Assembly (NCBI RefSeq): GCF_044324785.1
Contig: NZ_CP172127.1
Origin: Escherichia coli
GTDB lineage: Bacteria; Pseudomonadota; Gammaproteobacteria; Enterobacterales; Enterobacteriaceae
DNA length: 64,000 nt
Direction: 5' to 3' (one strand)
Shown here: piece by piece, positions 16,418 through 18,780 of the stretch
Layout: each line of letters begins with the position of its first letter
How positions within the stretch are numbered: position 1 is the first letter of the stretch
Position numbers and translations under genes: made by a program
Notes under the pieces: model-generated
Seen by the model: only the letters and a program-made list of their open reading frames with translations
Told to the model about the DNA's origin: nothing
Database searches by the model: none

Positions 16418-17821
16418 ATGAATACAGTACGCAGCGAAAAAGATTCGATGGGGGCGATTGATGTCCCGGCAGATAAGCTGTGGGGCGCACAAACTCAACG
16501 CTCGCTGGAGCATTTCCGCATTTCGACGGAGAAAATGCCCACCTCACTGATTCATGCGCTGGCGCTAACCAAGCGCGCAGCGGCAAAAGTTAATGAAGAT
16601 TTAGGCTTGTTGTCTGAAGAGAAAGCGAGCGCCATTCGTCAGGCGGCGGATGAAGTACTGGCAGGACAGCATGACGATGAATTCCCGCTTGCTATCTGGC
16701 AGACCGGCTCCGGCACGCAAAGTAATATGAACATGAACGAAGTGCTGGCTAATCGGGCCAGTGAATTACTTGGCGGCGTACGCGGGATGGAGCGTAAAGT
16801 TCATCCTAACGACGACGTGAACAAAAGCCAAAGTTCCAATGATGTCTTTCCGACGGCGATGCACGTTGCGGCGCTGCTGGCGCTGCGCAAGCAACTCATT
16901 CCGCAGCTTAAAACCCTGACACAGACGCTGAGTGAAAAATCGCGCGCATTTGCCGATATCGTCAAAATCGGTCGAACCCACTTGCAGGATGCCACGCCGC
17001 TAACACTGGGGCAGGAGATTTCCGGCTGGGTAGCGATGCTCGAGCATAATCTCAAACATATCGAATACAGCCTGCCGCATGTAGCGGAACTGGCTCTTGG
17101 CGGTACAGCGGTGGGTACTGGACTAAATACCCATCCGGAGTATGCGCGTCGCGTGGCAGATGAACTGGCAGTCATTACTTGTGCACCGTTTGTTACTGCG
17201 CCGAACAAATTTGAAGCGCTGGCGACCTGTGATGCCCTGGTTCAGGCGCACGGCGCGTTGAAAGGGTTGGCTGCGTCACTGATGAAAATTGCCAATGATG
17301 TCCGCTGGCTGGCCTCAGGCCCGCGCTGCGGAATTGGTGAAATCTCAATCCCGGAAAATGAGCCGGGCAGCTCAATCATGCCGGGGAAAGTGAACCCAAC
17401 CCAGTGTGAGGCATTAACCATGCTCTGCTGTCAGGTGATGGGGAACGACGTGGCGATCAACATGGGTGGCGCTTCCGGTAACTTTGAACTGAACGTCTTC
17501 CGTCCGATGGTGATCCACAATTTCCTGCAATCGGTGCGCTTGCTGGCAGATGGCATGGAAAGTTTCAACAAACACTGCGCAGTGGGCATTGAACCGAATC
17601 GTGAGCGAATCAATCAATTACTCAATGAATCGCTGATGCTGGTGACTGCGCTCAACACTCACATTGGTTATGACAAAGCCGCCGAGATCGCCAAAAAAGC
17701 GCATAAAGAAGGGCTGACCTTAAAAGCTGCGGCCCTTGCGCTGGGGTATCTTAGCGAAGCCGAGTTTGACAGCTGGGTACGGCCAGAACAGATGGTCGGC
17801 AGTATGAAAGCAGGGCGTTAA
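16418..17821 (+). CDS. fumC: class II fumarate hydratase
   Basis: ORF 467 aa with fumarase/aspartase signature [11 protein letters not shown]. Confidence 0.95.
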
Positions 17822-18747
17822 TCTGCAACATACAGGTGCAGCCGTGGAATGATCAAACGAAGCGGCTGCGCCTGTGGTTTATAACGGTGTTGCACATTGT
17901 CGGCATCGTAATTTAACAACTCCCCAACGTCCGGCACGCCCGCGCCATTATCCCGATTAATCAGCGCAATAAGCGGTGTAGGGCAAGCGTGTTGTACTTG
18001 TTTTTGATCTCCCTTGTACCAGACGCGGGCAATCGGCTGCACCTTCACCGGACGTTTGATTTTTAACTTCGCGTCCTGTGGCAGGGCCGCGATATCCTGA
18101 TACTCTCTCTCCAGTTTTCTTTGCCACTCCTCGCGCGTCCACGGTGCGACACTGCGCGGTGATTTCAGGCTTTTTTCCAGCTGTGCCAGGACTTCATCAC
18201 GATGCAAATTCTTAATGATATGTTTATTGGCCCAGCCAAAACGTAAAGTGGCGGGGTCGTGCAGAACAGTGAGCGTTCGGTAAGCATTAAGGGTGATCAG
18301 CCCCGGCAAATGACGATGCACCCATTCAAAACGCGCCGCTGTGGGGAGTTCTGACTCAACCGTGACGATATGCTCGAACGTAGTCTTGAGTTGATTGATG
18401 CGCTGAATATGACTGACCAACGCTGCTTGCGAAAGGTTATCGACCTGGTAACACAACACGCCAGGTAGACGAACAGCGGCCTTGCTGCTGCGATTTTCGG
18501 ACTGTTGTTGAATAAATAAATGGCGGAAATGACGTAACGCCAGCGACTGCGCGTCGTTGCCGAGATGTTGTTTTACCTCAATACGATTAAGCGGGTTATG
18601 TTCATCCTCTTTTTTCACCTCCGGTAAAGAGAACACGCGGGCAACCAGCAATTTGTGCTGTTCTAGTTCAGCGGCAAATGCAGCCAGTTCTCGTTCCATC
18701 TGGCGAAAGGTAGTGTTGAGTCGGTCTACGAGATCGTAACGCGCCAT
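17818..18747 (-). CDS. tus: replication terminus site-binding protein Tus
   Basis: Start at internal Met [21 protein letters not shown]... giving 309 aa; stop overlaps fumC stop (shared TTAA). Confidence 0.93.
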
Positions 18748-18757
18748 AATATTAACC

Positions 18758-18780
18758 ACTTTAGTTACAACATACTTTAT
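18758..18780 (-). other. terB: Replication terminator site (TerB-type) in the tus promoter region
   Basis: Minus strand reads ATAAAGTATGTTGTAACTAAAGT, containing the conserved Ter core GTATGTTGTAACTAAAG; 10 bp upstream of tus start. Confidence 0.85.

Follow-up and report, generated by a model that had tools for sequence, protein, structure and literature searches.

Two questions are raised by this locus: whether the Ter-like sequence directly upstream of tus in a 64,000-nucleotide stretch of Escherichia coli DNA (contig NZ_CP172127.1 of assembly GCF_044324785.1, hereafter the window) is the replication terminator TerB, and what a single-nucleotide difference in its flank means for replication-fork arrest and for the control of tus. 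The first-pass annotation had placed a conserved Ter core 10 bp upstream of the tus start, in the autoregulatory arrangement known for TerB in the tus promoter, and had suspected that the flank differs by 1 nt from the canonical site. We consider it very likely (probability about 0.93) that the locus is the canonical TerB-tus of E. coli, present here as a natural minority allele and serving as both a fork barrier and the operator of tus, with Tus binding, fork arrest and repression carried over from the K-12 literature. The TerB-tus arrangement itself is textbook knowledge, and the differences found here fall at positions known to be variable. The elements that carry this reading are as follows.

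18780..18758, minus strand: 23-bp TerB site ATAAAGTATGTTGTAACTAAAGT, with position 1 (non-permissive face) at 18780 and position 23 (permissive face) at 18758.
18775, plus strand: C6 in the sequence, with G6 on the minus strand; its role of flipping into the Tus pocket is taken from PMC4499146 and PMC8707476.
18776..18778, minus strand: AAA run at Ter positions 3-5, carrying one A more than the AA of K-12 (alignment).
18748..18757, minus strand: 10-nt spacer GGTTAATATT, separating the tus ATG (18747..18745) from Ter position 23.

Read along the minus strand, the region runs ...TGTGCTATAAA ATAAAGTATGTTGTAACTAAAGT GGTTAATATT ATGGCGCGT..., and the 17-mer core GTATGTTGTAACTAAAG contained in it has a single occurrence in the window, an exact match at 18759..18775 (minus strand). 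When every 23-mer of the window was scored on the 13 conserved core positions (6 and 8-19), 18780..18758 alone reached 13/13, while the next best reached 11/13 and lacked G6. Judged by the criteria of PMC8707476, the 12-bp core A8-A19 (ATGTTGTAACTA) is intact, and position 5 is A on the minus strand, which places T(5) on the strand that carries C6. The tus ATG lies 10 nt from the end of the 23-mer, so that the distance given by the first-pass annotation is true of the 23-bp site, and 11 nt from the last base of the 17-mer that it had quoted. A 10-bp region separating tus and TerB is also mentioned in PMC8707476; in the window this spacer would belong to the 5' leader of tus, and a ribosome-binding site may extend across AAGTGG.

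Could the match be a chance or pseudo-Ter sequence without function? Short Ter-like fragments do arise by chance, as GTTGTAAC occurs three times in the window against 1.68 expected. However, 0.10 matches to GTATGTTGTAACTAAAG are expected in the window even with 3 mismatches tolerated, and the exact 17-mer stands here with a complete 13/13 core, 10 bp from tus, at a locus found in 5,423 of 5,426 E. coli genomes. On these grounds the chance reading was ruled out as vanishingly improbable.

The suspected difference in the flank proved to be real. Where K-12 MG1655 reads CTATAAAATAAGTATG, the window reads CTATAAAATAAAGTATG, and the alignment resolves this as the insertion of one A (+1 A) just 5' of G6; the AATAAG that the first-pass annotation had given for TerB was correct (MG1655; PMC4752480). 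The MG1655 region reads GCTATAAAATAAGTATGTTGTAACTAAAGTGGTTAATATTATG and contains the canonical TerB AATAAGTATGTTGTAACTAAAGT, which is also printed in PMC4752480. In the frame of the 23-mer, the insertion alters only position 2 (A to T) and position 3 (T to A), leaving 21 of 23 positions identical, namely position 1 and positions 4-23 with A5 and G6/C6 among them. The alignment to canonical TerB that the first-pass annotation had proposed thus finds G6/C6 and positions 8-19 identical, and no difference in the core was seen.

Published definitions of a Ter site place both altered positions outside the conserved core. In the account of Goodall et al. (PMC8347550), this core consists of base pairs 6 and 8-18, base pairs 1-5, 7 and 19-23 are highly variable, and the outer variation makes no direct contact with Tus; Toft et al. 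(PMC8707476) define Ter as C(6) followed by the 12-bp A8-A19 core. For the lock, T(5) and C(6) are required (PMC8707476, PMC4499146): GC(6) is needed for permanent arrest (Pandey et al., PMC4499146), and a T to G change at position 5 has been proposed to explain the lock failure of TerF and TerH (PMC8707476). T(5), C(6) and the core are all kept in the window allele. A natural counterpart of its flank exists in K-12 itself, since TerE (TTAAAGTATGTTGTAACTAAGCA, read directly from the chromosome) is the same as the window TerB at positions 2-20, including the TAAAG non-permissive flank, and differs at positions 1 and 21-23. TerE has no association with tus; its place is between efeU and efeO, within the opposite Ter cluster that stops forks moving anticlockwise, and it is among the six Ter sites significantly bound by Tus in vivo by chromatin immunoprecipitation sequencing (ChIP-seq) (PMC8707476).

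At such a site a Tus monomer would bind the 23 bp and serve the two roles known from K-12. A fork that comes in from rstB, moving from high to low coordinates, would unwind the non-permissive end and free C6 (18775, plus strand), which would dock in the cytosine pocket of Tus, locking the complex and stopping the helicase, while a fork arriving from the tus side would meet the permissive face and displace Tus. The strands are disposed accordingly for a fork moving from rstB toward tus: the lagging-strand template, on which DnaB tracks, is the minus strand with G6, and the displaced plus strand carries C6. The presence of C6 on the displaced strand is a requirement of the mousetrap model (PMC4499146).

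The orientation of the site within the chromosome can be read from the guanine-cytosine (GC) skew, which is positive on the plus strand in 13 of 15 overlapping 8-kb bins, with a cumulative skew that climbs steadily to 0.49. A positive skew marks the plus strand as leading, and forks therefore normally travel from low to high coordinates; with the site on the minus strand, they meet Ter position 23, the permissive face, first. This is the orientation of K-12 TerB, a site that lets forks into the trap, and the window is reversed relative to the K-12 coordinates.

How often a fork is stopped here in vivo is a separate matter, and the site may serve chiefly as the operator of tus and seldom as a barrier, with TerC inside the trap stopping most forks and conservation reflecting regulation more than arrest. 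The E. coli trap is of 'type II', meaning that another Ter lies further inside than the one next to tus (PMC8707476, PMC10331603), and the conserved block described below runs beyond Ter through the spacer and the tus start, as would be expected of a promoter and leader. Yet significant fork pausing and the highest Tus ChIP coverage are reported at TerB, and no ectopic TerB could be obtained in the blocking orientation (PMC8707476); the site is also oriented to the GC skew as a barrier must be. We regard a mainly regulatory role as unlikely, and it would in any case be compatible with a site that is both barrier and operator.

Further Ter sites were sought among the short matches. The copies of GTTGTAAC at 2479 and 43180 were rejected, since neither combines G6 with a full core (10 and 11 of 13, respectively). 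The Ter-like 23-mer CGTACAGATGTTGTAACCATTGT at 43171..43193 (plus strand), with 11/13 core positions, A at position 6 and C at position 18, sits within an open reading frame of 808 amino acids (42512..44938, minus strand). If functional, it would turn its blocking end to the normal fork, and it should not lock because G6 is missing.

As an operator, the site is best considered together with the sequence between it and rstB, where we recognized the following elements.

18781..18789, minus strand: putative extended -10 element TGcTATAAA (hexamer TATAAA at 18786..18781), proposed from its sequence; TGTGCTATAA is invariant in the alignment.
18804..18809, minus strand: putative -35 element TGGTCA, likewise proposed, 17 nt upstream of the -10; in the alignment its GGTCA never varies and its first T hardly does.
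18790..18805, minus strand: divergent patch CAGGCTGTCGATACTG against CAAGTCACCACGACTG in K-12 (8 differences in 16 bases); it spans the final 2 bases of the putative -35 and two-thirds of the putative promoter spacer from its 5' end.

The 17-nt stretch between the two elements is variable across the alignment, and invariant -10-like and -35-like elements around a variable spacer are what would be expected of a sigma-70 promoter. In the window, TGcTATAAA directly adjoins Ter position 1; in K-12 the final A of TATAAA is itself Ter position 1, and the window therefore has its Ter core 1 bp further downstream. With this putative promoter, transcription would start at about Ter positions 7-9. Since the start would lie inside a Ter site that begins right after the -10-like element, bound Tus would occlude RNA polymerase and repress tus. 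This agrees with published accounts that place terB inside the tus promoter as the mediator of autoregulation (PMC8347550, PMC8707476, PMC12809603) and have Tus repress its own synthesis (also PMC10331603), and the position in the window matches the autoregulatory arrangement that had been proposed for it. For K-12, repression of tus by TerB-bound Tus is attributed to Natarajan 1991 and Roecklein 1991 and 1992, as these are cited in PMC8707476 and PMC12809603.

An insertion in nature has struck this putative promoter directly. Strain KTa005 of E. coli carries an ISEcp1 transposition unit (about 1038..2545 of NZ_CP147084.1) exactly at the putative tus -35, turning TGGTCA into GGGTCA; the unit parts tus from rstB and leaves TerB and tus intact.

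To place the window allele among its relatives, we counted TerB alleles in 5,426 complete E. coli genomes with 40-41-nt queries centred on the indel, for which the 28-mer megablast seed forms only on the matching allele. The alleles are listed by TerB positions 1-10, except for the last.

AATAAGTATG (K-12): 2,361 genomes.
AATAAGGATG: at least 1,373 genomes.
ATAAAGTATG (the window, +1 A): 268 genomes.
ATAAAGGATG: 52 genomes.
GTTAAGGATG: 47 genomes.
ATTAAGGATG: the TerB allele of O157:H7 strain TX 265-1, outside the counted alleles.

The five counted alleles leave about 1,300 genomes unclassified, of which at least some carry the O157:H7 allele. A 171-nt query for the whole intergenic region gave a matching division: 268 genomes were at least 95% identical, and 5,155 fell at 90-95%. 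The window-type promoter and 5' haplotype is carried by about 5% of the complete genomes. Across the roughly 17 lineages whose sequences were read, the TerB 23-mer varies only at positions 1-3 and 7, and positions 4-6 and 8-23 are invariant. AATAAGGATG, ATAAAGGATG, GTTAAGGATG and ATTAAGGATG are substitutions that keep the length, leaving the window allele as the sole length variant among the alleles read.

Conservation extends past the site. The block that runs from Ter position 8 through the spacer to nt 16 of tus is perfect in 4,789 genomes and carries 1-2 mismatches in 634. All three genomes read from the latter group (EcPF7, E20 and CMZE120) have a G to A change at the second base of the spacer (GATTAATATT; window 18756), which is 2 bp outside the 23-mer and may fall within the tus ribosome-binding region, and one of the three is also altered in tus codon 2. 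Of the 18 lineages read, 15 share the spacer GGTTAATATT unchanged.

Among complete RefSeq E. coli genomes, none exceeded 98.9% identity over the first 25 kb of the window, so that the source lineage is absent from that set; it may be Shigella or an E. coli lineage that has been little sampled. The window sequence is not an isolated one: 3,930 bp of it are present at 100% identity in the draft assembly GCA_020811775.1, and the exact window Tus protein is indexed in 444 blocks of an assembly collection. Given these occurrences, the +1 A allele is a circulating natural minority haplotype and not a sequence error. As a by-product, the counts provide a census of natural TerB alleles in complete genomes that agrees with, and slightly extends, the published five-phylogroup comparison.

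The +1 A allele does not come alone. The divergent patch is a haplotype common to the window and strains A10 and EC16, and the divergence continues into the gene, where codons 19-51 (about 18595..18693) hold 14 of the 42 tus codons that differ from K-12. With 24 differences in 200 nt, the 5' end of tus is a local peak; other parts differ at roughly 2-3 positions per 100 nt. The peak points to a 5' segment of mosaic or recombinant origin that is linked to the +1 A TerB allele. The window holds no second copy of the patch that could have been its template, the patch is not the reverse complement of the K-12 version, and its exact 22-mer was not found in 100,044 species-representative genomes. 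The patch also creates a window-specific inverted repeat, GCCTGAC...GTCAGGC, after rstB; as a terminator it was rejected, since its folding energy of -14.1 kcal/mol is unexceptional against shuffled sequences (z=-0.63) and it has no U-tract.

Nothing found here contradicts the canonical reading, but several observations limit it. The window allele is the only one read that alters the distance from the -10-like element to the Ter core, and its linkage to a heavily substituted promoter spacer means that an effect on tus expression may exist. Position 3 is not necessarily kinetically inert, given that the replisome slows at T(3)-A(5) of TerB before the lock forms (Pandey et al., PMC4499146). The promoter hexamers on which the operator model depends are a proposal drawn from sequence, and a consensus scan of 17600..19000 returned 0 promoter-like sites; that tool demands T at position 6 of the -10 hexamer, which is why the -10-like element went uncalled.

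A rival reading is that the extra A and its divergent spacer make the locus functionally different, by changing either the kinetics of Tus at the non-permissive end or the geometry between polymerase and Tus, and hence the Tus level or the efficiency of arrest at TerB. The length change, the 8 of 16 substituted patch bases with the divergence peak at the start of tus, and the slowing of the replisome within TerB all speak for such a difference. Other evidence speaks against it: positions 4-23, with A5 and G6, are unaltered; TAAA at positions 2-5 is also found in K-12 TerE, a high-affinity site that forms the lock (PMC8707476); positions 1-5 are variable and make no contact with Tus (PMC8347550); steric overlap between Tus and polymerase would survive a 1-bp shift; and the allele persists in 268 complete genomes. 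We therefore consider a functional difference of this kind quite unlikely, and would expect the extra A to leave Tus binding and the lock in place with at most a small change in the autoregulatory set point.

A more specific proposal, that the +1 A, the patch and the divergent start of tus (about 50 codons) form a distinct recombinant promoter and 5' haplotype that resets tus autoregulation, the Tus level and the stringency of the fork trap relative to K-12-type strains, appears very unlikely, and the haplotype looks like ordinary mosaic variation in the population. On the canonical reading, the locus matters little beyond its correct annotation: the TerB-tus module is fully intact, and on this flank of the terminus the fork trap should work as it does in K-12. 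The +1 A allele is, in addition, a natural test case for the role of the spacing between the -10 element and the Ter core in tus autoregulation.

The genes around the site have their expected identities.

17818..18747, minus strand: tus, DNA replication terminus site-binding protein, 309 amino acids (Pfam PF05472; PDB 1ECR/2I06), with its TAA stop at 17820..17818.
16418..17821, plus strand: fumC, class II fumarate hydratase, 467 amino acids (Pfam Lyase_1 and FumaraseC_C; same coordinates in the collinear strain A10), with its TAA stop at 17819..17821.
18824..20125, minus strand: rstB, sensor histidine kinase, co-directional with tus (Pfam HAMP, HisKA and HATPase_c; A10 annotation).
17818..17821, both strands: TTAA, the overlapping stops of fumC and tus, which share 17819..17820 (2 nt).

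The rstB stop lies 76 nt upstream of the tus ATG in the window, and rstA is also among the neighbours by Pfam. Strain A10 is collinear with the window over 25 kb and has tus, fumC, rstB and rstA annotated at exactly these coordinates, and the gene identities are also backed by annotation in more than 5,400 E. coli genomes. The predicted Tus matches the Pfam Ter family PF05472 with E=2.5e-137 and the crystallised E. coli Tus (1ECR) with E=6e-204 over residues 1-309, of which 303 of 309 are identical; 2I06 was also matched. A longer Tus, starting at a GTG in a 362-amino-acid open reading frame (17818..18906, minus strand), was rejected in favour of the ATG at 18747, whose 309 amino acids match the PDB and RefSeq proteins; the longer frame is an open in-frame upstream extension through TerB, the promoter and the 3' end of rstB.

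Relative to K-12, the window Tus carries the substitutions Q19R, I23A, H27E, H116R, K119Q and N225D. We take the cytosine pocket of Tus to consist of I79, F140, H144 and G149, and K89, R198, A173 and Q250 to be its key DNA contacts. All of these residues, as well as E49, are the same in the window protein as in the 1ECR/2I06 Tus, and as judged from the aligned proteins none of the six substitutions hits a residue of the C6 pocket or a DNA contact. That 45 of 930 nt differ in tus and only 6 amino acids are changed indicates purifying selection on the protein.

At the other end of tus, the TAA stops of fumC and tus overlap by 2 nt on opposite strands, just as the first-pass annotation had described. 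The resulting 4-nt gene overlap is likewise annotated in K-12, strain A10, KTa005 and the draft assembly GCA_020811775.1, that is, in every annotated genome inspected. The consensus scan of 17600..19000 found no intrinsic terminator or terminator-like hairpin at the junction. Two terminator-like matches elsewhere in that interval, at 18891..18879 (minus strand) and 18646..18660 (plus strand), were rejected; they lie within rstB and tus, respectively, and are not above chance (mean 2.3). The TTAA overlap is a conserved compact tail-to-tail packing of fumC and tus, with no sign of a special role.

Far from the locus, positions 44000..64000 of the window have a GC content of about 0.47, against 0.50 elsewhere. 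Rfam models identify DicF at 55056..55107 (minus strand) and the sok antitoxin RNA at 60554..60725 (plus strand) there, and BLAST matches include integrases, an exonuclease and IS66-family (ISEc22/ISEc23) transposases. This part looks like a Qin-like cryptic prophage region, which is variable among E. coli, and positions 39001..64000 are covered to at least 80% in only 542 genomes.

Compared with known systems, the locus is closest to that of K-12. Around MG1655 tus (b1610) the order is the same, with rstA, rstB, TerB, the 10-bp spacer, tus and the convergent, overlapping fumC; there, rstB is followed by a 75-nt gap, tus (1684259..1685188) and a fumC that overlaps the tus end by 4 nt. The window differs from it in having ATAAAG for AATAAG, 8 of the 16 patch bases in the promoter spacer, and the 6 amino acids in Tus (98% identical) and 45/930 nt in tus described above. 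The K-12 trap is of type II, and the window shares the neighbouring gene order with K-12; terC falls outside the window. More widely among Enterobacterales, in fork traps of types I and II, a Ter with C(6) and the A8-A19 core lies just upstream of tus as both barrier and repressor (PMC8707476, PMC10331603). These tus-adjacent sites share 74-87% identity with E. coli TerB and occupy the innermost position in type I traps.

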